Below the pieces are notes generated by a model. It made no database searches. It was not told the origin of the DNA and saw nothing but the letters and a program-made list of their open reading frames with translations. From an uncultured Chloroflexia bacterium (GTDB taxonomy: Bacteria > Chloroflexota > Limnocylindria > Limnocylindrales > CSP1-4), in assembly GCA_963755995.1 (NCBI GenBank), contig CAVWLQ010000002.1, positions 53,028 to 117,027 of the forward strand: a stretch of 64,000 nucleotides of DNA. The letters run 5' to 3'. Numbering within the stretch: position 1 is the first letter of the stretch; every line of letters starts with the position of its first letter. Shown piece after piece: positions 37,140-45,836 of the stretch. The position numbers were made by a program, and so were the translations under genes.

Positions 37140-38020
37140 TGGCCGCCGCGAACCCGGCCCTGGTCAGCCGCCTCACCGCGACCGGCTCACACGGCCGCCG
37201 GCTGTGGGTCGACCGCGGCATGCGCACGGTGGCGCTCCTGGCGGCGCTGGCCTGCGTCATCCCGCTCGCCGCAGTGCTCATCTTCGTGACCATCAACGGC
37301 CTGGCCGCCCTCAACCTGGACCTGCTGACCAAGCCGTCGCGAGCCCAGGGCATCGGCGGTGGCGCATACGGGGCAATCCTCGGCACGATCCAGATGGTCG
37401 GCCTCGCCACGCTCATCGCGATCCCCTTCGGCGTCCTGGCCGGGATCTACGTCAACGAGTTCAGCTCGCAGCGCGCCGCCCGCGGCGTACGGTTCGCGGC
37501 GGACGTCCTCGTCGGGGTGCCGTCGATCCTGATCGGGATCTTCGTCTATACATTCCTCGTCCAGCCGTTCAAGCAGTACAACGCGTTCGCCGGCAGCGTC
37601 GCCCTGGCCGTGATCATGGTGCCGGTCATCATGCGCACGACCGAGGAGATCCTGAAGCTCGTCCCCGGCTCGCTCCGCGAGGCCTCCCTGGCGCTCGGGA
37701 TCCCGACCTGGCGGACCGTCCTGTCCGTCGCCGTCCGGACGGGGCTGCCCGGCATCCTGACCGGGATCATGCTCGCCGTCGCCCGGGCGGCCGGCGAGAC
37801 CGCGCCGCTGCTGTTCACGGCCCTCGGCAGCCGGCTCGTGAACGTCGGCGACTTCTCGAAGCCGATGGATGCCCTGCCCTTGTTCATCTTCGTCAACGCC
37901 CGGCAGCCGTACGAGCTGCAGAACCAGCAGGCCTGGGGTGCGGCGTTCCTGCTCTTGCTGTTCGTCCTCGTCGTCAACGTCCTCGTCCGCTTCCGGACCG
38001 CGGGACAGCGAGCCCGATGA
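37139..38020 (+). CDS. pstA: Phosphate ABC transporter permease
   Basis: [29 protein letters not shown]; TGATG overlap. Confidence 0.95.
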
Positions 38021-38937
38021 AGGAGCCCGATCCCGTGACCACCCAGCTGCGCGACCCATCTCCCAGGCCACCGGAGACGAAGGCCGACCCTTCGCCCGTG
38101 CAGGCCATGGCAGCGACCCGGACGGATGCGTCGGCGGCGCTATCGACCGGTACGGTCGAGCAAGCCTCGGGCCGGATCGACATCGACGGGCTGCACGTCT
38201 ACTACGGCGCCTTTCGAGCTGTGCGGGACATTTCTCTGACCGTCCAGCCGCATGCGATCACGGCGATCATCGGACCGTCCGGTTGCGGCAAGTCGACGTT
38301 CCTGCGAACCCTCAACCGGATGCACGAGCTGACTCCCGAGACGCGCGTCGAGGGATCCGTTCGGCTGGACGGCGAGGACATCTATGGCTCGGCGATCGAC
38401 CCGGTGGCACTGCGGCGGGTCGTCGGCATGGTCTTCCAACGGCCCAACCCGTTTCCCACGATGTCGATCTACGACAACGTCATCGCCGGGCTCCGGCTGA
38501 CCGGCCGGCCGAAGACTTCCACCTATGACGAAGTGGTCGAGCGATGTCTCCGTCGGGCCGCGCTGTGGGACGAGGTCAAGGACAAGCTCCGCCAGGGCGG
38601 CACGTCGCTGTCGGGTGGCCAGCAGCAGCGACTGTGCATCGCGCGGGCCCTCGCAGTCGACCCCGAGGTCATCCTGATGGACGAGCCGGCGTCCGCGCTG
38701 GACCCGGTCGCCACGCTCCGGATCGAGGAGCTGATGGCCGAGCTGCGCTCGAACTACACCATCGTGATCGTCACTCACAACATGCAGCAGGCCTCGCGGA
38801 TCAGCGACTACACGGCGTTCTTCACGATGGGTCCGGACCGGGCGGGCTACCTGGTCGAGATGGACCAGACCGTCCAGATCTTCACCAACCCGAGCCAGCA
38901 GCTGACCGAGGACTACGTCTCCGGCCGGTTCGGTTGA
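38017..38937 (+). CDS. pstB: Phosphate ABC transporter ATPase
   Basis: [47 protein letters not shown]-terminus. Confidence 0.96.
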
Positions 38938-38950
38938 ACCGAGGTCGACG

Positions 38951-39721
38951 ATGACCGACGACCATCTGACGGGAGATACGATGATGGACGCCCAGATCGA
39001 GGCGCTGATGACCGATTCCCGCAACACCGAGGCGCATCCGGACCTGTCGCGGCCGGGTGGCTCGGCTCCCCGCGAGGCGCTGGACCGCGAAGAGCAGTTG
39101 ATCCGCGACTCCGTGCTCAGGATGGGCGCCCTCGTCGAGGCGGCGATCCGGGAGGCGTCCCGAGCCCTGGTCGCGCACGACCCGGCGCTCGCGCTGGACG
39201 TCATCAAGGGTGACGCGATCATCAACGAGGCCCAGCGAGGAGTCTCGCGTCTGATCGCGGTCACCATCGCAACTCAGCAACCGGTGGCGCGCGACCTGCG
39301 CTACCTCCTCACCCTGGACCATGTGACGTACGAGCTGGAACGGATGGGCGACCACGCGGCATCGGTCGCCAAGGCGGCGATCAAGCTGGCTCCTGAGCCG
39401 CCACTCGAACACCACATCCACCTGCCCGAGATGGCAGAGCGTTCGGCGGTCCTCGTCCACGGCGTCCTGAGGGCACTGATCGAATCGGACGCGATCAAGG
39501 CCCGTGAGATCGCGGTCGAGGACGACGAGATCGACCGGCTCTACCACGCCACCTTCGACGAGGTCGTGGAGTTGATGCGTCAGGACCCGGCCAATGTGGA
39601 GCGCGGCACCCGGATCATCATCGCCTCGCACTACCTGGAGCGGATCGGCGACCGGGCGACGAACATCGCCGAGGACGTCGTCTACCTCGTGACGGGAGAC
39701 GTCGAAGACCTCAACCCGTGA
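38951..39721 (+). CDS. phoU: Phosphate signalling/transport regulator
   Basis: QQPVARDLR, ELERMGDHA, LERIGDRATNIAE duplicated motifs. Confidence 0.95.
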   Translation: MTDDHLTGDTMMDAQIEALMTDSRNTEAHPDLSRPGGSAPREALDREEQLIRDSVLRMGALVEAAIREASRALVAHDPALALDVIKGDAIINEAQRGVSRLIAVTIATQQPVARDLRYLLTLDHVTYELERMGDHAASVAKAAIKLAPEPPLEHHIHLPEMAERSAVLVHGVLRALIESDAIKAREIAVEDDEIDRLYHATFDEVVELMRQDPANVERGTRIIIASHYLERIGDRATNIAEDVVYLVTGDVEDLNP

Positions 39722-39783
39722 CCGGGCCGGCGGGTGGCCGGGGCAGGCCCGCTCGCGCGTCGAACCGCTACCCTAGCGGGGTC

Positions 39784-40269
39784 GTGACCGATCTCTCGTT
39801 CCTCCGCCATGCGCACGCCGGCGACCGCCTCACCTGGCAAGGCCCCGACGAGAACCGGCCGCTCTCGGACAAGGGCGAGCGCCAGGCCGAGCGCCTGGGA
39901 GCGTTCCTTGCCGGCGTCAAGTTCTCGCCGGACGTCTTCATCACGTCGCCCAAGGTCCGTGCGGCGCGCACCGCGGAGATCGTCGCCGGCCACCTGGGCA
40001 CGCCCGTCACGGTCGACGACCGGCTCGCCAGCCCTTTCGACCTCCCGACCCTCGAGCGGATCCTTGTCGACGCCGGTGATCCCGCCCGGCCCGTGATCGT
40101 CGGTCACGACCCCGACTTCAGCGAGCTCCTCGCGCTCCTGTCGGGCACCGCGGACCTGCCGATGCGCAAGGGCGCGTTCGCGCTGGTCGATGTCGAGCGC
40201 CCGCTGTCCGCCGGCGCCGGAACGCTCCGCTGGCTGGTCCCGCCTGACCTGCTGAAACCCGAGCGCTGA
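39784..40269 (+). CDS. sixA: SixA-like histidine phosphatase
   Basis: LRHAHA, RPLSDKG, TSPKVRA..TA, VGHDP, LRWLVPP. Alternative start at GTG 39718. Confidence 0.85.
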   Translation: MTDLSFLRHAHAGDRLTWQGPDENRPLSDKGERQAERLGAFLAGVKFSPDVFITSPKVRAARTAEIVAGHLGTPVTVDDRLASPFDLPTLERILVDAGDPARPVIVGHDPDFSELLALLSGTADLPMRKGAFALVDVERPLSAGAGTLRWLVPPDLLKPER

Positions 40270-40280
40270 GGGGCGCGCCG

Positions 40281-40922
40281 CTACTCGGCCGGGTCGAGCG
40301 GACCGCCGCGCAGGGACCGGTACGCGAGCGTCCCGAGGGCCGCCCCGAGGATCGGCGCCGCGATGTAGATCCAGAGATGCGCGAAGTCGCCTGAGATGAT
40401 CGCCGGCCCGATCGAGCGAGCCGGGTTCATCGATGCGCCGCTGATCGGACCGCCGACGAGGGCACCGAGGGCCACCGTGCCGCCGATCGCGAGCGCGGCC
40501 GCCTGCCCGACGGCCCGGATGTCCGTCGCCACGGCCGTGATCACCAGCATCAGGACGAACGTCAGGACGACCTCCCAGGCGAAGGACTGCAGGTCGGACC
40601 CGGTCGGCTGGGTGACGCCCAGGTCGGCGTCCGGCCCGAGCGTCGCGCGCAGGGCGAGCGCCGCGATGGTGGCTCCCAGGATCTGGGCGGCCGCGTACGC
40701 GGCGACCCTGGACCAGGGCAGGTGCCGCCCGATCGCGAAGGCGATCGAGACCGCCGGATTGAAGTGGGCGCCGGAGATGTGGCCGAAGGTGTACACCATC
40801 ACCGCGACGACCAGGCCGAAGGCGAGCGCGACCGATGTCGGAGGGAGCCCGTTCGCGATCGCGCCGCAACCGAAGAAGACGAGCGCGAAGGTGCCCAGGA
40901 ACTCGGCGGCGACAGCCCTCAA
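40281..40922 (-). CDS. MIP-family aquaporin/aquaglyceroporin (AqpS-like arsenite channel by context)
   Basis: AEFLGTF, SGAHFNPAVS, SMNPARSIGP; TTG start overlapping the ArsC stop. Confidence 0.92.
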   Translation of the reverse strand: MRAVAAEFLGTFALVFFGCGAIANGLPPTSVALAFGLVVAVMVYTFGHISGAHFNPAVSIAFAIGRHLPWSRVAAYAAAQILGATIAALALRATLGPDADLGVTQPTGSDLQSFAWEVVLTFVLMLVITAVATDIRAVGQAAALAIGGTVALGALVGGPISGASMNPARSIGPAIISGDFAHLWIYIAAPILGAALGTLAYRSLRGGPLDPAE

Positions 40923-41752
40923 GCGAGGGCGGGTCGCCGCGGCCGACCTGCGGCGCGGAGCGCGACCTCGATGAAAGGTCGGAGGCGGGCGGACACCTCG
41001 GTCTCGGTCCGACGGAATGCGGCGAGCTTCTCTTCGTCAGAGCCCTCCACCTCCGATGGGTCATCCAGTCCCCAGTGCAGCGTGTTCGAGGATCCCGGGA
41101 AGACCGGGCATGTCGCGCGGGCGCGATCACAGACGGTGATGACGTAGTCGAACGTCTGGTCCAGGAACTCGGTGATCGACTTGCTGCGGGCACCGTCTCC
41201 AGTCGATGCCGGCCTCCTCGAGGACACGATGGCGAACGGGTTGACCCGGGTCACCTCTGTGCCCGCCGAAAAGACCTCGAAGTCATCGCCGCCGTACCGC
41301 TCGAGCAGCGCCTCGGCGATCTGGCTTCGGGCCGAGTTGTGGGTGCAGACGAAGAGGACGCGGATCGGCGCTTTGGACACGGGACGCTCCTTCCGTGAGG
41401 CTCGGCCGGCGGCCGCGATCGTCATCTCGAGATCGAGCAGCTCGCCCTCGAGCCGATCGAGGTCCGCGCGCTGCCGGGCGATGCCCGGCGTTGTTCCGCC
41501 ACCAACGGCGCGAGGTCGAGGTCCACGGCACCCCGCTCGAGGCAGAGGCGCGCGAGTCGCCCCGCATCTTCCGGCGCGAGGCCCAGCCGCCGGAGCGAGA
41601 TGACGAGGCGGAGCCGCGCGAGATCGACGCTCGTCGTACTCGCGGTAGCCGTTCGGGCGGCGCGCGGGTGCCGGAAGGACGCCCTCCTGCTCGTACCAGC
41701 GCACTGCTGAGGCGGCCACCCCGGCGCGTGTCGCAAGCTCGGCGATCCTCAT
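40919..41752 (-). CDS. arsC: MerR-HTH/ArsC (LMW-PTP-fold, thioredoxin-type arsenate reductase) fusion, with two pairs of compensating indels
   Basis: N-terminal MRIAELA..AVRWYEQEGVL..RRPNGYREY; C-terminal LFVCTHNSARSQ, TVCDRARATCPVFPG, HWGLDDP. No stop in any frame across the junction; internal AAGGAG plus GTG near 41380. Confidence 0.8.
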   Translation of the reverse strand: MRIAELATRAGVAASAVRWYEQEGVLPAPARRPNGYREYDERRSRAAPPRHLAPAAGPRAGRCGATRAPLPRAGCRGPRPRAVGGGTTPGIARQRADLDRLEGELLDLEMTIAAAGRASRKERPVSKAPIRVLFVCTHNSARSQIAEALLERYGGDDFEVFSAGTEVTRVNPFAIVSSRRPASTGDGARSKSITEFLDQTFDYVITVCDRARATCPVFPGSSNTLHWGLDDPSEVEGSDEEKLAAFRRTETEVSARLRPFIEVALRAAGRPRRPALA

Positions 41753-41760
41753 GCGTCGCG

Positions 41761-41791
41761 ATCGTAGACCTTCGAGTCGCTCGAAGGTCAA
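41761..41791 (-). promoter_or_regulatory. MerR-type promoter with 19-bp spacer and dyad operator
   Basis: Minus strand TTGACC-N19-TACGAT with the perfect dyad GACCTTCGAG-TCG-CTCGAAGGTC (41767-41789). Confidence 0.8.
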
Positions 41792-42135
41792 GCGTCATCT
41801 TCTAGGCGCGTGGCCTCGACCACCGGGAGGCGTCGCGATGTGGGCGGGAGACCGATGGCCGGGCCGAACCCGCCGGCGAGCTCGCGGAAGCGCTCGACCG
41901 CCTGGGGCCGGATCGAGTACCAGATCCAGGTCCCGCGCCGCTCGCCTGCGATCCAGCCCGCGTCGCGGAGGACCTTGAGATGGTGCGACACGGTCGGCTG
42001 GCTGACGTCGCAGCAGGCGGTGAAGTCGCAGGCGCAGACCTCGGCGAGATCGCTCAACTGGCGGAGGATGGCGAGTCGGGTCGGGTCGGCGGCGGCCTGG
42101 AGGAGCAGGACGTCCGGGTCGGTCTGGCGCTTCAT
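41788..42135 (-). CDS. arsR: ArsR/SmtB arsenic-responsive repressor
   Basis: ADPTRLAIL, EVCACDFTACC, SQPTVSHHLKVLRDAG, RRGTWIWY. Confidence 0.92.
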   Translation of the reverse strand: MKRQTDPDVLLLQAAADPTRLAILRQLSDLAEVCACDFTACCDVSQPTVSHHLKVLRDAGWIAGERRGTWIWYSIRPQAVERFRELAGGFGPAIGLPPTSRRLPVVEATRLEDDA

Positions 42136-42142
42136 GCGCTCA

Positions 42143-42182
42143 CTGTATTGACAAATATCTATCTTGACAAGTATCAATACAG
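42143..42182. promoter_or_regulatory. Divergent arsR/arsM promoter with ArsR-type inverted repeat
   Basis: AT-rich island with CTGTATTGA...TCAATACAG arms and two TTGACA hexamers. Confidence 0.7.
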
Positions 42183-42214
42183 CGACCACGGCCCGCCAGC
42201 ACCCGAGGAGCACG

Positions 42215-43054
42215 ATGACCACCGCGACCACGACGAGCGAGTCCACCGAGAGCATCCACGAGGACGTTCGCCAGCACTATGCAGACGCGGCGATCCGGGC
42301 GACCCAAGGCTCCTCGTGTTGCAGCGATCCCGAGACCATCGGCGCCAACCTGTACTCCGCGCTCGAGCGCGATGAACTGCCGGACGCCGCGGTCCTCGCT
42401 TCTCTCGGCTGCGGCAACCCGACCGCGGTCGCGGATCTCCATCCGGGCGAGCGCGTCCTCGACCTCGGTTCGGGCGGCGGCATCGATGTCCTCCTCTCGG
42501 CCAAGCGGGTCGGTCCGACCGGTCGCGCGTTCGGTGTCGACATGACCGACGAGATGCTGGCGCTGGCCCAGCAGAACGCCGCCCAGGCCGGCGCGACAAA
42601 CGTCGAGTTCCTCAAGGGCCACATCGAGGCGCTACCGCTGCCTGCCGAGTCGATCGACGTCGTGATCAGCAACTGCGTCGTCAACCTCGCGGCGGACAAG
42701 CCCGCCGTCTTCGCCGAGATCGCCCGGGTCCTGCGCCCGGGCGGTCGGATCGGCATCAGCGACATCGTGGCCGAGGACTCGCTGAGCCCCGAGCAGCGCG
42801 CCGAGCGCGGCTCGTACGCGGGCTGCATCGCTGGCGCCCTGTCCATCTCGGAGTTCCGCCAGGGCCTCGAGGCGGTCGGGCTGACCGAGGTCTCGATCAC
42901 GCCGTCGCACACCGTCACCGACGGGATGATCAGCGCGATCATCAAGGCGACCAAGCCCGCGGATGCGCGACCGCTGATCGACCTGACCGCGAAGCGCGGG
43001 CTGCTGCCGGTCGCCGAGGCCGGCGGCTGCTGCGGTGGCGAGGGCTGCTGCTGA
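42215..43054 (+). CDS. arsM: Arsenite S-adenosylmethionine methyltransferase
   Basis: [32 protein letters not shown]; Cys pairs at the N-terminus and C-terminal [10 protein letters not shown]; GAGGAG RBS. Confidence 0.95.
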
Positions 43055-43485
43055 TGCAGCTCAGCCGCGCCGCACGCGGCGACTGGTCCTCGGTCCGCGA
43101 CCTGCTGACCGAGGCCGGCCTGCCACTGGACGGCGCGGCCGAGGCGTTCGCAAGCGGTGTCATCGCCAGGGATGGCGATCGCCTGGTCGGCTGTGCGGCC
43201 ATCGAGCCGTACGACGGAGTCGCACTTCTCCGCTCGGTCGCCGTCGTGCCCGACCAACGAGGGACGGGCGTCGGGACGAGTCTCGTCCATGCGGTCGAGG
43301 ATCTGGCGCGGGATCGCGGGGCGACGAGCCTCCTCCTGTTGACCGAGAGGGCCGAGTCATGGTTCAGCCGCCTCGGCTACGCGGTCATCGATCGCGCGAC
43401 GGTGCCGGCGGACGTTGCGCGCTCCGTCGAGTTCGAGACCGCCTGCTCGACGAGTGCCGTCGCGATGCGCCGGACCTTCGCGTAA
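43054..43485 (+). CDS. ArsN2-like GNAT acetyltransferase
   Basis: [41 protein letters not shown]; coupled to arsM. Confidence 0.85.
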
Positions 43486-43490
43486 CCGTC

Positions 43491-44414
43491 ATGTCCCGTC
43501 CGCCGATCGCGCCGCGTGATCTTGCCGCGCTGATCCTCGCTGCCACCAGCTGGGGTGTCGGCACGGTCATCAGCAAAGCGGCCCTCACCGAGATCTCGCC
43601 GTTCACGCTCCTTCCAGTCCAACTCGCCGCCAGCCTCGCGGTCCTGGCCGTCCTGATGCGATCTCAGGGGATCTCGTTCCGGACCGAAGGCTCGCCACTG
43701 CTGGGCCGGCTCGGCCTCCTGAACCCGGGTCTCGCATACGCGCTTGGCCTGATCGGGCTGACGACGATCACGGCCAGCCTGTACGTTCTGCTGTGGGCCG
43801 TCGAGCCGCTGATGATCCTGTTCCTGGCGGCCTGGTTCCTGCGCGAGCGGATCACACCGGCCTTTGTCGTCCTGTCACTCACCGCGGTCACCGGGATGGT
43901 CGTGATCCTCTATGACCCATCGGCGAGCACCGGAGAGCTGATCGGGGTGAGCCTGACGCTCGTCGGGATCCTGTGCTGCGCGGTCTATTCCGTCGTCACA
44001 CGACGTTGGATCCCGGATGCCACGGAGACGAGCCAGGTGGTCCTCTCCCAGCAGGCACACGCACTCGTGCTGGCCATCGGGCTGGTCCTCGTGGTCGGCC
44101 TGGGCGGCGGCCGGATCGTGCCGACGGCGCTGACTCCGTTCGGTCTCGCAAGTGCGATCGGCTCCGGCGTCCTCTACTACGCCGGCGCCTACTGGTTCTA
44201 CCTCGGCGCACTGCGCCACGTCCCGGCCTCGTACGCGGCGCTCTCGTTCTACCTGATCCCGATCGTGGGCGTTGCGGCGGGGGCGATCCTGCTCGGCGAG
44301 CGGCTCGATCCGCGTCAGTGGATCGGCGCACTCATCGTCCTCGGGGCGATCCTCGCGATCCTCCGCCAGCCGTCAGCGGAACGTCAGGAGGCGGCGGTGA
44401 CGGCAACGGCCTGA
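43491..44414 (+). CDS. DMT/EamA family transporter
   Basis: 10 hydrophobic segments in two EamA repeats; LLGERL..QWIG. Confidence 0.88.
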   Translation: MSRPPIAPRDLAALILAATSWGVGTVISKAALTEISPFTLLPVQLAASLAVLAVLMRSQGISFRTEGSPLLGRLGLLNPGLAYALGLIGLTTITASLYVLLWAVEPLMILFLAAWFLRERITPAFVVLSLTAVTGMVVILYDPSASTGELIGVSLTLVGILCCAVYSVVTRRWIPDATETSQVVLSQQAHALVLAIGLVLVVGLGGGRIVPTALTPFGLASAIGSGVLYYAGAYWFYLGALRHVPASYAALSFYLIPIVGVAAGAILLGERLDPRQWIGALIVLGAILAILRQPSAERQEAAVTATA

Positions 44415-44440
44415 CCGGCGCACGGATCAGGCCGGACCGC

Positions 44441-45836
44441 TCAGTCGGCCGGCAGCATCGTCATCGCGTGATCCGGGCGCAGCAGGAACGGCGGCAGGTA
44501 GGCGGGCAGGTTCGAGAACGGCAGGACATCCGGGTGGAGCTCGATCCCGAGCGCGTCGGCCATGAACGCAGCGACGCGCCTGGATCCGTGCCCACGCCGC
44601 GGGATGGGCCGCTTCGAACGCCGCGCGCAGGGACGCGTCGGCGAGCGCCACGCCGTCCTCGATGTTGGTCGTGAAGTAGTCGGTCCCGGTCGCCGGGATG
44701 ATGTCCACCTGGAAGGCCATCCCGGACCGGAGCTCGATCGTCGACCCGCGCGAGATCGGCGAGTTGACCCACTCGTCGAGCTGGATCTGATGGCCGGGAT
44801 TGAGGAAGATCCCGAAGAACGGATCGCCCAGGTGCCGGTCCACGATCTCGAACAGCGCGCCACCGGTCTGCCCGATCCGCAGCGCGCCGTACCACTCGGC
44901 GACCGCCTCGAAATACGGCGCCACGAGGCGGTCGACGTAGTCGCCGATGCCGGCCGGGAGCTCGGCGGCGTCGGCGACCACGAACCCCGCCCGGCAGACG
45001 AGAGCGCCCCAGATCCCGAAGGCGACGGTGAACCGGTCGCCGGCCTCGATGGCCCGATCGCCCGGGCTCAGCAGCCCGAGCGTCGCGCGCGGACCGGCGG
45101 TGAGCATGAGGTGGCAGGACAGCGGCGCCCCGTCCCAGTCGAGGAGCCGGACCGCCTCGCGTTCGGTCATCCCGGGCCGGAGGCCGAGCAGCAGCCGGCG
45201 CACCCCGTTCGAGGTCCGGCAGGCGGCGTCTTCGAGCGCGGCCAGCTGGTCCACCTCGTTGATGACCCGCAGCCCGTCGCCGGCGTCGATGAGCAGGTCG
45301 GTCGCGTTCTCGACCGCGCCACTCTCCCCCGTGACCCGTCGCAGCTCGTCGGCGATGTAGGACGGGACGTCCATCGAGCCGCGGTCCGCGTACGTCTTCC
45401 AGCCGACGACCCCCACCCGGCTCCCCTGCCCGATCCCCTCCTCGCCCAGGATCTCCGCGAGCGGGCGCGATCGGTCGCGCGGCTGGCCGGGCAGGCTCAG
45501 GTCCTGGAACCGGTGGCGGCGCATGGCCAGCGGTGCCGCGCCGGCCATCCCGTAGCACTCGTTGCCGACCAGGATGGCCGGGTCGCCGGCCGGCCCGACG
45601 ATGAGCACGGCCTCCTCGAAGCGCGGGTCGAACCCGGTCAGCCAGGCGAGGTTCGCGCTGTGCTCGCGGTCGGCGTACATGACCAGCCGGTCGTAGCCCC
45701 GCTCCGCGACGCGAGCGCGAAGGGCGGCCAGCCGCGTCCGATACAGCGACGGCGGCAGCTCCGGGCTCGCATCGGGCATCCCGAAGTCGGGCAGGTCGAT
45801 CGGGGCGAGGCGGGCCTCGGCGCTTCGGGCGGTCAT
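44441..45836 (-). CDS. Xaa-Pro aminopeptidase/creatinase-like protein (M24 fold) with a +1 indel near 44570
   Basis: YADREH.ANL.WLTGFDPRFEE, LNPGHQIQLDEW, QVDIIP, NIEDG. The alternate frame completes FMADALGI..PLSN-like C-terminus to a stop at 44443-44441. Confidence 0.75.

Follow-up and report, generated by a model that had tools for sequence, protein, structure and literature searches.

Can an arsenate reductase act as the sensory domain of the regulator that controls its own gene? To our knowledge, the known regulators of bacterial ars operons are ArsR-type repressors that answer As(III), and arsenate is sensed only once it has been reduced. The question is raised by a gene of a soil Chloroflexota genome, found in the window (the whole stretch of 64,000 nucleotides that was analysed), in which a MerR-type regulator and a thioredoxin-type arsenate reductase (ArsC) share one reading frame.

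Results

A conserved gene joins MerR to ArsC

An ORF of 290 amino acids (40919..41791, reverse strand) runs without a stop through the translation of the window. The extent given in the sequence-only reading is open throughout but needs correction at its 5′ end: the TTG at 41791 is formed by the first three bases of the promoter's −35 hexamer. The CDS is predicted to start instead at the conserved ATG at 41750–41752 and TTG 41791 is assigned to the promoter. The coding features are:

40919..41752, reverse strand: merR-arsC fusion CDS as assembled (ATG 41750–41752, TGA 40919–40921), with four single-base indels inside
41393..41752, reverse strand: MerR module, with winged helix-turn-helix (HTH), helix 4 with Cys70 and a long coiled-coil helix (∼ residues 76–120 of the orthologue)
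40919..41380, reverse strand: ArsC module (LMWPc fold), aligned to B. subtilis ArsC 1JL3 and 8P5N
41345–41347, reverse strand: codon of the ArsC P-loop Cys
41129–41131 and 41108–41110, reverse strand: codons of the ArsC Cys pair

In this single frame a MerR winged HTH leads into a coiled coil of ∼ 45 residues, and a linker of 9 residues connects these to a complete ArsC. Pfam places MerR on residues 15–52 of the window ORF (PF00376, E 3e-12) and LMWPc on residues 145–271 (E 4e-14), in agreement with the earlier proposal of a MerR HTH and coiled coil joined in frame to a thioredoxin-type ArsC; the CTHNSAR and C-x6-C motifs that it named are present in the translated ArsC. PF13411 covers only profile positions 1–41 of 69 on the window ORF because of a frameshift (see below); relatives match MerR_1 in full. 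Stop codons had been said to be absent from every frame at the junction. This is true of the frame of the gene, but another frame stops at 41422–41424, ∼ 40 nt upstream.

Relatives carry the gene intact. Orthologues of 277–285 amino acids are found in same-genus genomes (for example 277 amino acids at L002:1498-2331), and both Pfam domains, MerR and LMWPc, occur in 120/120 homologues among the matches listed, so that the suggested search for this architecture returned a conserved family. Among 401 sampled genomes of the class, 73 (∼ 18% of sampled species) hold the full-length fusion, at 75 places in all and in two families of that class; no fusion was found in other families of the 401-genome phylum sample. 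A stop between merR and arsC was looked for and none was present in any orthologue examined. By these comparisons the fusion is a genuine, conserved gene family. Matches of 41–54% identity in same-genus genomes were considered as a second fusion family and rejected; these proved to be arsC genes that stand alone directly behind phoU, the upstream gene having been read out of frame. A search of sequencing runs gave a top share of sampled words of 0.14 and no RNA run was among its matches.

Frameshifts in the window copy

The assembly has four single-base indels in the fusion CDS, as had been noted from the letters, and comparison with six to seven relatives locates them and shows them to be private to the window:

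∼ 41628/41629: indel 1, extra base (six comparators; not in a short-read contig of depth 2 that matches over 151 nt with 1 mismatch)
41482..41483: indel 2, missing base (seven comparators; spanned by no read-derived contig)
41227..41231: indel 3, missing base (a ∼ 90% identical soil contig has an additional C behind 41231)
41196: indel 4, extra base (six comparators; left out in a read-derived contig)

The four make up two compensating pairs, with 49 codons of the MerR part and 11 of the ArsC part scrambled as a result. Two more window-private indels lie at ∼ 41752–41756 (+2 nt) and at ∼ 41811 (+1 nt, 3′ end of arsR). The proposed check against short reads could be made for three of the four indels in the gene: short-read contigs lack those at 41628, 41196 and 41231, and indel 2 is not spanned. 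Another contig lacks the 41810/41811 base. The contigs that speak against two of the indels have a depth of 2, and a single-contig difference below depth 5 may itself be an error. Since no comparator shares the indels and three of them are missing from short-read contigs, the four frameshifts are probably assembly (consensus) errors. Programmed frameshifting was discarded as a reading, each indel being private to one assembly.

Two less favourable explanations of this copy have to be weighed. That the fusion is an artefact, in which separate merR and arsC genes were merged through sequencing error, draws on the indels that do occur here; we regard its probability as negligible, since many assemblies of varied origin, built from short reads as well as long reads, have the gene as an intact single ORF and no stop separates the modules in the orthologues examined. 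The other explanation takes the window copy as a true pseudogene whose frameshifts are real, in which case only the internally initiated ArsC (see below), with its 11 scrambled codons, could be made. All six private indels fall within 615 bp (41196–41811), a clustering unlike random error, with none in the flanking ∼ 3 kb wherever at least three comparators were available, and indel 2 is contradicted by no read-derived contig. Against this, indel 1 is missing from the near-identical contig (1 mismatch in 151 nt), as is the 41810/41811 base from a further contig; the closest relative (L043) has four private indels of its own in the same gene, different from those of the window; and there is no excess of base substitutions, each scrambled stretch reading correctly after a shift of frame. 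The own genome, moreover, consists of 7 contigs with 72.6% marker completeness, which would fit the pattern of an indel-rich assembly. We judge a pseudogene to be distinctly unlikely.

The MerR module has no recognizable metal site of the CueR/MerR type

The N-terminal winged HTH of the MerR family is identified by Pfam, and the AlphaFold2 model has a helix at residues 76–120 (pLDDT 84–92), as expected for the coiled coil of that family, through which the protein would dimerize. CueR, PbrR/CadR, MerR and ZntR are the best matches in structure and sequence for residues 1–115 of the fusion; the alignment extends to residue 108 with CueR and to residue 115 with PbrR-like 5GPE. The likeness ends at the effector site. 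No Cys at the N-terminus of helix 5 or in the C-terminal loop, where CueR- and MerR-type proteins hold their metal ligands, was found in the alignments; the ligands, which we take to be Cys112/Cys120 in CueR and Cys79 in MerR/PbrR, have no counterpart in the fusion. Scores against the NCBIfam equivalogs of metal-sensing MerR proteins (48–58 bits) lie well below the cut-offs of 143–168. The CueR metal loop is replaced by the linker and an enzyme domain of 150 amino acids. The sole Cys of the MerR part, Cys70, is found in 123/123 aligned sequences at the end of helix 4, adjoining the hinge.

BmrR, TipAL, BrlR and SkgA also carry a folded sensor domain behind a MerR HTH and coiled coil, and are weaker matches in the PDB. 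The ligands of these sensor domains are drugs or nucleotides, and none of the domains is known to be an enzyme of the regulated pathway or an LMWPc domain.

A CueR-box-like dyad lies in the promoter of the fusion

The promoter features are:

41761..41791, reverse strand: MerR-type promoter (−35 TTGACC 41786–41791, 19-nt spacer, −10 TACGAT 41761–41766)
41767..41789: operator dyad GACCTTCGAG-cga-CTCGAAGGTC, between −35 and −10

The dyad arms (41767–41776 and 41780–41789) are 10 nt long, 3 nt apart and 100% complementary, so that the TTGACC-N19-TACGAT promoter with its perfect 10-bp dyad is in the window just as first described. It is also conserved: the TTGACC-N19-TAnnnT layout, with 19-nt spacer and dyad, recurs at 29/36 loci and in 18/19 further genes, and 7 to 10 of the 10 dyad pairs are kept in relatives. 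No MerR-type promoter was found at two of the 36 loci compared (L028 and L035). In the 64 kb window TTGAC-N20-TANNNT has one occurrence where 0.01 are expected, and the operator is the sole site in the own genome at up to three mismatches. A dyad inside an over-long spacer (19–20 bp) is a mark of the MerR family. E. coli PcopA has in common with this promoter the −35 TTGACC, the outer half-sites ACCTTC/GAAGGT and the 19-nt spacer, and its −10 begins with TA. The element in the spacer of the fusion's promoter is a predicted CueR-box-like dyad. In most relatives the start codon lies ∼ 6 nt downstream of the −10, which implies a leaderless mRNA.

The ArsC module and a subclade without the catalytic Cys

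The P-loop CX5R aligns to Cys10/Arg16 of 1JL3, with the Cys in 122 and the Arg in all of the 123 sequences. The equivalents of Cys82 and Cys89 are C208 (121/123) and C215 (122/123), and the catalytic Asp (D231) is present in 123/123. S. aureus pI258 and B. subtilis ArsC (1JL3, 1LJL) share with the module the LMWPc fold, the CX5R, the C-x6-C and the Asp of HWGxDDP. They differ from it in that the ArsC of the fusion is attached to a regulator and stays below the equivalog cut-off: arsC_pI258_fam (TIGR02691) is its best NCBIfam family, yet at 121.6 bits against 174.3. Judged by fold and catalytic residues, the window module is predicted to be a thioredoxin-type arsenate reductase. The conserved catalytic residues are equally explained by an enzyme made separately and are not by themselves support for sensing.

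A further difference from these enzymes is that one divergent subclade of the fusion family (P0123, P0272 and P0273) has lost the nucleophile. Here Ser replaces the P-loop Cys, there is no Cys at the position of Cys208 and no start at the junction, while the domain and Arg142 are kept. P0272 and P0273 also have Tyr at position 70 and miss two of the three ArsC cysteines, and still retain the architecture. The subclade is known from these three database proteins only, without DNA context; a metagenome scan for its DNA returned only relatives of the ArsC domain with at most 53% identity, and searches of class and phylum genomes gave no member closer than 58%. Retention of the domain after loss of both catalytic Cys and internal start suggests that the ArsC module serves in sensing.

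A candidate internal start at the ArsC boundary

Two elements lie at the junction, as the sequence-only reading had pointed out:

41387..41392, reverse strand: AAGGAG, Shine–Dalgarno-like motif, inside linker codons
41378..41380, reverse strand: in-frame GTG, candidate internal start for a free ArsC of ∼ 153 amino acids

An ATG or GTG with a Shine–Dalgarno-like motif is present at the junction of 31/31 loci and 18/19 further genes. Columns 1 and 125 are the only Met/Val columns of the 123-sequence alignment; column 125 holds Val in 60 and Met in 56 sequences. The Val codons at this position are all GTG, a codon that accounts for 187 of the 514 Val codons in these genes. The motifs (AGGAGG, AAGGAG or GGGAGG) occupy differing codon registers among relatives and the linker peptides that they encode differ (RKERP, RREPS, RRTIP, RREVS and others). 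The 16S rRNA of the own genome, located by an Rfam SSU search, ends ...GGATCACCTCCTTTCT and has the anti-Shine–Dalgarno sequence. A scan of duplex energies with this sequence is noisy, with the junction coming out strongest in just 11 of the 23 intact genes; since it discriminates poorly, our case is built on the conservation of start codon and motif. With an in-frame start and a ribosome-binding motif both conserved, nested isoforms are predicted, and the second start should also yield the ArsC enzyme alone.

Neighbouring genes

The genes next to the fusion are:

40281..40922, reverse strand: MIP-family channel gene (Pfam MIP, E 3.5e-55; NCBIfam MIP subfamily, 171.4 bits against a cut-off of 171.25)
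41788..42255, reverse strand: arsR (HTH_5), directly upstream of the fusion; likely real CDS ∼ 42135 to ∼ 41801
42164–43054, forward strand: arsM, divergent (NCBIfam arsenite methyltransferase, 292.8 bits against a cut-off of 263)
43054–43485, forward strand: arsN2, divergent (NCBIfam ArsN2, 134.2 bits against a cut-off of 125)

The extra base at ∼ 41811 lengthens the arsR ORF through the −35 box. The TTG start of the MIP gene overlaps the TGA stop of the fusion (TTGA), and the same overlap is present in L003, L015, L036 and L042. An operon of fusion, free ArsC and aquaporin had been proposed; the MIP gene is there in the window and at some other loci, but elsewhere an ACR3 gene or nothing related to arsenic follows the fusion. 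Since many loci have no arsenic gene downstream, the regulon would often be just the fusion gene itself. The suggestion of a second layer of control beside ArsR gains anatomical plausibility from the arsR gene directly upstream.

MIP–ArsC fusions of channel and enzyme were reportedly described by Wu, Song and Beitz in 2010; in the window the channel is a separate gene, predicted to be translationally coupled, and a regulator takes the channel's place as fusion partner of the enzyme. Our domain-architecture search gave a MIP+LMWPc cluster (P0264). The ArsC plus AqpS pathway of Sinorhizobium meliloti likewise pairs ArsC with an MIP channel, as exit for internal As(III) (PMC6205960, PMC6138428); the channel is found at only some of the fusion loci. 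AqpS with ArsC is described there as protecting against arsenate but sensitizing cells to external arsenite (PMC6205960, passage on AqpS).

Discussion

A working model

We propose that the gene encodes an autoregulated MerR-family regulator that uses a whole thioredoxin-type arsenate reductase as its effector module, and that the frameshifts of the window copy are assembly errors. We put the probability of this reading at roughly 0.55. A dimer would bind the dyad, and the over-spaced promoter would be activated, as by other MerR proteins, when the effector module changes state. The trigger would be arsenate on the ArsC module, either through occupation of the CX5R P-loop or through turnover that leads to an oxidized, rearranged state of the Cys82–Cys89 type. 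The module would take the place of the CueR metal loop and adjoin the hinge of the partner and the invariant Cys70. On one mRNA, the leaderless start would yield small amounts of full-length sensor, and the internal, Shine–Dalgarno-led start larger amounts of free ArsC. In the window this mRNA would also give the coupled MIP channel, through which the As(III) product could leave the cell, and the upstream ArsR would contribute an As(III)-responsive layer. We infer both the sensing of As(V) by the ArsC module and the arsenic response of the promoter. Indirect indications of sensing come from the Cys-less subclade that keeps the domain, from the MerR part that has no metal ligands of the CueR/MerR type and, by analogy, from the precedent of ArsR–ArsC fusions.

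The signal could instead be As(III), or another thiol-reactive or oxidizing agent, acting through Cys70 and the ArsC Cys pair, with ArsC supplying As(III) locally and the cysteines binding or relaying the signal like the three-Cys sites of ArsR. Known ars regulators do sense As(III). The invariance of Cys70 and its place at the end of helix 4 by the hinge speak for such a route, and in the characterized ArsRC concept (PMC11672702) an ArsR domain that senses As(III) is joined with an ArsC module. P0272 and P0273, however, keep the architecture with Tyr70 and without two of the three ArsC cysteines, and, to go by the AqpS passage of PMC6205960, induction of an aquaporin-type exit channel by external As(III) would harm the cell. 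We consider an As(III) or thiol signal unlikely. A simpler account dispenses with allostery: loss of a stop codon tethered an ordinary MerR autoregulator to an enzyme that is mostly made from its own start, and the regulator is constitutive or answers an unrelated signal, the ArsC part being enzyme only. The Shine–Dalgarno motif and start at the junction would be the expected remnant of an ancestral separate arsC, stand-alone paralogues have the same N-terminus (L041), and ArsC is reported to be prone to fusions of many kinds (PMC6205960). Yet the frame stays open in 120/120 homologues among the matches listed and the fusion is found across two families of the class, the MerR part offers no other site for an effector, and a catalytically dead domain has been retained in a subclade; on balance an accidental tether seems quite improbable.

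Relation to ArsR–ArsC fusions

A Paracoccus ArsRC is said to have been described by Chen et al. in 2022 (Environ Microbiol 24:1977). ArsRC fusions are the closest known system, in that they also place an arsenic-operon regulator N-terminal to an LMWPc-type ArsC; they are also noted in L. ferriphilum, Microbacterium and Sinorhizobium, and an ArsRC fusion is reported to improve As(V) detection (PMC11672702; see also PMC6205960). Their DNA-binding module is of the ArsR/SmtB (repressor) type, whereas that of the fusion studied here is MerR-type (activator-type, DNA-distorting). Pfam finds no HTH_5 in the MerR–ArsC fusion, which places it outside ArsRC, and many HTH_5+LMWPc clusters were returned by the domain-architecture search separately from MerR+LMWPc. 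The 19-bp-spacer promoter of MerR type is a further difference, as is the conserved start at the junction, where only 3 of 12 ArsR–ArsC representatives have a Met. Our literature search, with subscription papers mostly outside it and absence from print therefore not proven, found no description of a MerR–ArsC fusion; the word 'MerR' does not occur in the review PMC6205960. The arrangement looks to be an undescribed mode of arsenate sensing.

Implications

The observations can be combined into a bolder picture that we hold tentatively, somewhat below even odds: a first MerR-family arsenic sensor that reads As(V) directly, with codons read twice, feedback and a receptor subclade. A CueR-like, DNA-distorting regulator would then have the complete ArsC as its module for ligand binding or redox switching, and the free enzyme would consume the signal of the sensor, giving built-in negative feedback. 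The sister subclade, with Ser in place of the P-loop Cys, would be a pure, non-catalytic oxyanion receptor.

If the proposed mechanism is true, it would add an As(V)-responsive principle of control, a MerR-type activator with ArsC as its sensory module, and a natural case in which a MerR protein has taken up an enzyme as its effector domain. The mechanism would also explain how a pathway of reductase plus channel, harmful under external As(III), is switched on by arsenate only. With its conserved internal start, the family would also be well suited to testing how a sensor and an enzyme isoform are nested in one gene. A compact biosensor part specific for As(V) could follow; portability to a laboratory host is expected because the protein would recognize a CueR-box-like operator. 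Present in ∼ 18% of the sampled species of a widespread soil class, the fusion may matter for the cycling of arsenic in soil.

A conserved MerR-ArsC family

An ORF running from 41791 to 40919 on the minus strand of the window encodes 290 aa with two Pfam matches, a MerR HTH at residues 15-52 and, at residues 145-271, an LMWPc domain (ArsC/low-molecular-weight phosphatase). The MerR_1 match covers profile positions 1-41 of 69, which hints at a frame problem; other genomes of the same genus carry intact single ORFs of 277-285 aa. All elements listed in a sequence-only reading of this DNA (fusion ORF, promoter, dyad, AAGGAG, GTG and ArsC) were found. The TTG that opens the ORF at 41791, however, belongs to the -35 hexamer, of which it forms the first half; relatives have in common the ATG start at 41752-41750.

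Features of the fusion locus in the window
41791-41761, minus strand: MerR-type promoter, TTGACC + 19 nt + TACGAT
41767-41776 and 41780-41789: perfect 10-nt inverted repeat inside the promoter
41392-41387, minus strand: AAGGAG, directly before the ArsC strand IRVLFVC
41380-41378, minus strand: in-frame GTG, candidate internal start, directly before the same ArsC strand
40922-40281, minus strand: MIP channel gene, its TTG start overlapping the TGA of the fusion
Directly upstream of the fusion, same (minus) strand: arsR
Diverging from arsR: arsM and arsN2, both above NCBIfam cut-offs

The joint architecture proposed by that reading is present in every one of the 120 database homologues listed for the intact orthologue P0001 (MerR and LMWPc Pfam domains in 120/120, 78-95% identity), which their sources name 'arsenate reductase' or 'MerR family transcriptional regulator'. 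MerR+LMWPc clusters are few at 50% clustering; other LMWPc architectures among the clusters are ArsR(HTH_5)+LMWPc, MIP+LMWPc, LMWPc+GNAT and tandem LMWPc. An even sample of the class has the full-length fusion at 75 places in 73/401 genomes, 54 in family f1 and 19 in f4; one of these, G401, is flagged as unpublished and is used for no other statement here. The phylum sample of 401 genomes gave full-length matches in f1 (12/23) and f4 (1/16) and none in the other families searched. The named relatives are MAGs labelled uncultured Chloroflexia, Chloroflexota or Candidatus Limnocylindrales. Judged by sequence, the merR-arsC fusion is thus a real, conserved family. Two genomes, G059 (C6:518082, C3:80781) and G177 (C3:26323, C6:17873), have two full-length copies each.

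Indels in the window copy

The four indels already noticed in the gene are present in the assembly; they were located by aligning the DNA of the window to the intact orthologue from the same genus and, in a second step, to five relatives. In each module two of them compensate each other, and the frame is shifted in between, over 49 codons of MerR and 11 of ArsC. Comparison of window 37500-45500 with seven relatives (blastn) gave six window-private indels, each backed by at least three comparators and all within 615 bp (41196-41811); none was found in the flanking ~3 kb covered by at least three comparators (aquaporin, arsR body, arsM).

Window-private indels and the comparison that located them
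~41811, arsR 3' end: 1 extra nt (blastn against relatives)
~41752: 2 extra nt (blastn against relatives)
~41629: extra base (alignment to relatives)
~41482/3: missing base (alignment to relatives)
~41227-31: missing base (alignment to relatives)
~41196: extra base (alignment to relatives)

The base at 41628 is absent from a 151-nt short-read soil contig that shows a single mismatch, and that at 41810 from a second, near-identical one (both depth 2, flagged weak); a ~90% identical soil contig has no counterpart to the base at 41196, and in it one more C follows 41231. The window copy might be a true pseudogene in the source strain, and the assembly does carry the four indels, but the soil-run contigs contradict three of them (that at ~41482/3 is not bridged), and we consider the window indels probably to be consensus errors. 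The fusion gene of L043, the closest relative, contains four private single-base indels too, different from those of the window. Together these observations suggest a local consensus problem in a conserved gene as opposed to uniform error; reads from related populations, mapping onto an unusually conserved gene during polishing, may be the cause. The source genome consists of 7 contigs with a marker completeness of only 72.6%.

The extra base at ~41811 lengthens the arsR ORF by ~5 codons and puts an apparent TGA inside the -35 box (window 41788-41815), which is why arsR seems to enter that box. Without it, arsR ends ...VEARA as in the orthologue, with a TAG ~10 nt before the -35 element, so that a terminator would not fit between this gene and the fusion promoter.

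Promoter and operator

The motif TTGAC-N20-TANNNT occurs once in the 64 kb against 0.01 expected. A scripted search found TTGA(C/G)N-N19-(T/C)AnnnT with a dyad in 29/36 loci. The seven misses comprise one 5'-truncated contig, two stand-alone arsC genes, two loci (L023, L036) that have the promoter by eye but failed the helper motif, and two (L028, L035) that truly lack a MerR-type promoter. Of 19 other distinct genes that the class and phylum searches supplied, 18 also have the promoter, and across loci 7-10 of the 10 dyad pairs are complementary. In most loci the start codon lies 6 nt after the -10 element (8 nt in the window, two of them private indels), which implies a leaderless mRNA.

Escherichia coli PcopA (K-12 record) reads TTGACC-ttccccttgctggaaggtt-TAACCT. 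Its -35 element is identical to that of the window, and it shares the outer half-sites ACCTTC/GAAGGT, their positions and the 19-nt spacer, which fits the residue-for-residue alignment of the MerR part with CueR. No second operator copy was found in the source genome, itself incomplete, at up to 3 mismatches, so that detectable regulation is limited to the fusion promoter.

One lineage (L018, L019, L020, L024, L039) has the promoter ~28 nt further upstream and a protein N-terminally extended by 14-20 residues; it is still leaderless, with ATG ~7 nt after the -10 element. L042:2964-3290 holds two promoter/operator copies ~296 bp apart (dyads of 10/10 and 9/10 pairs) within a match of 1113 nt (usually ~831 nt), suggesting either that some of the gene's 5' part has been duplicated in tandem in that MAG or that this is an assembly artefact.

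Gene neighbourhood

The predicted operon of fusion, free ArsC and aquaporin fits the gene order of the window and of L003, L015, L036 and L042, where a MIP channel comes next, but not as a general rule: ACR3 follows in L027 and L029 (and is divergent in L044), and no arsenic gene was seen after the fusion in L014, L016, L018, L024, L030 and others among the 82 ORFs scanned, which a GC3 filter picked from 104 candidates and which may miss some genes. arsR adjoins the fusion in L013, L033 and L043. Since the downstream genes differ, promoter plus fusion appears from these sequences to be the constant unit and the exit transporter optional.

The arsM-arsN2-EamA transporter unit occupies window 42164-44414, and the stop of arsM (43054) is where arsN2 starts; EamA and arsM are also found as neighbours in L013, L014, L016, L032 and L033. 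On the other side of the fusion lie PhoU, PstB and a SixA-like histidine phosphatase (His_Phos_1, 39718-40269, between phoU and the aquaporin gene). A SixA-like gene also follows the fusion in L032, L034 and L043, and cluster P0197 is an LMWPc+His_Phos_1 fusion. The pst-phoU cluster abuts the ars island in the window, and many same-genus genomes have a stand-alone arsC directly downstream of phoU (L007, L009, L010, L012, L052; own genome C3:669971-670621). Phosphate-uptake control and arsenate reduction are recurrently linked.

A candidate internal start at the junction

The ribosome-binding site and GTG that the sequence-only reading placed at the ArsC boundary are seen in the window, and the start codon is kept among relatives. 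In 31/31 loci found by P-loop search the FVC motif is preceded, at a distance of 7-10 codons, by an in-frame ATG (12) or GTG (19), and a junction ATG/GTG is present in 18/19 further genes; these sequences are related, so the counts are not independent events. Of the 36 loci examined the regex missed five, including L003 and L005, which read ...RKERPMSDAPIRVLFVC at the junction. In a 123-sequence alignment the junction column (V60, M56, L3, four others) is the sole M/V column besides column 1; the linker columns around it show free variation. Where the DNA was seen, every Val at the junction is encoded by GTG, against 187/514 Val codons over these genes. Among ArsR-ArsC fusions, taken as a control, only 3/12 cluster representatives place a Met 4-8 residues ahead of the first strand.

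A purine-rich AGGAGG/AAGGAG/GGGAGG-like motif always lies 5-10 nt upstream of the junction start; the 16S rRNA of the source genome ends ...GGATCACCTCCTTTCT. The motif stands in differing codon registers and encodes varying peptides (RKERP, RREPS, RRTIP, RREVS, HKEAS, PEEE and others), which points to selection on RNA rather than protein. An energy scan ranked the junction first in only 11/23 genes. The predicted internal product is a complete ArsC of ~153 aa beginning four residues before strand 1.

ArsC in place of the metal loop

The AF2 model of the orthologue (123 aligned sequences; mean pLDDT 85, pTM 0.57) has HTH helices at 3-22, helices at 41-55 and 60-73, a long helix at 76-120, a 9-residue linker of low confidence (121-129) and the LMWPc fold from residue 130. 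Aligned with B. subtilis ArsC (1JL3), the enzyme part has the P-loop Cys and Arg, the C-x6-C pair and the Asp of HWGxDDP in place, kept in 121-123 of 123 sequences. The MerR part aligns with CueR residue for residue to 108 and with a PbrR-like protein to 115. The alignments show no Cys at what we take to be the metal-ligand positions of CueR, MerR or PbrR; its only Cys, Cys70 at the end of helix 4, is invariant (123/123). The ArsC enzyme thus occupies the place of the CueR metal loop, which in solved MerR dimers adjoins the hinge of the partner subunit.

Invariance of Cys70 leaves room for a different, less probable signal, As(III) or a thiol-reactive agent sensed through that residue, and the fused enzyme could, again less probably, be a passive tether with no allostery. 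Three database proteins, P0123, P0272 and P0273 (48-58% identical to the orthologue), bear on the role of the ArsC domain. Their P-loop, SNFNAARG, has Ser for the nucleophilic Cys, Ser or Asn replaces Cys208 (the Cys82 equivalent), and the junction has neither M nor V; Arg142 is kept, as is the remainder of the fold. P0125 likewise lacks the Cys208 equivalent and the junction start. Loss of the enzyme chemistry thus goes together with loss of the internal start, yet the domain is still fused to the regulator. These three or four sequences, a thin set, are the best evidence here that the ArsC module may act non-catalytically, as a sensor, and that the purpose of the internal start would be to make active enzyme. 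P0272 and P0273 lie on contigs 13 kb and 76 kb long and have Tyr instead of Cys70; class and phylum genome and metagenome searches recovered no DNA context for this subclade.

A candidate arsenate switch

The closest known system is the ArsR-ArsC fusion, whose primary paper is reportedly Chen et al. 2022. The present protein has no HTH_5 domain and is therefore outside that family. MerR-family dimers realign over-spaced -35 and -10 elements, and the fusion has both the structure and the promoter of this family; lacking metal ligands, it falls outside the metal-sensing subfamily. Our literature search found no publication describing a MerR-ArsC fusion. What is new is the reading and not the sequences, since databases already contain hundreds of members under generic names.

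Given the architecture, the MerR-type promoter with its operator, the predicted leaderless layout and the conserved internal start signal, we propose that a dimer would sit on the dyad and that a change of state in ArsC would realign the over-spaced elements. The trigger could be arsenate in the P-loop or the oxidised, rearranged state after turnover; the thioredoxin-coupled ArsC mechanism is known from work on the pI258 and B. subtilis enzymes. The signal would be removed by free ArsC, made from the internal start, and the channel acting together. The near absence of terminator room after arsR would permit readthrough, and on such transcripts the fusion's own start would have neither an SD nor a 5' end, so that only the internal start would be efficient, a second rationale for keeping it.

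According to passages of PMC6205960, ArsR-ArsC fusions occur in several genomes, ArsC being 'predestined' for fusions, and AqpS with ArsC protects against arsenate and sensitises cells to external arsenite. Because of this double effect, an As(V)-specific switch would be sensible for a pathway made up of reductase and channel.
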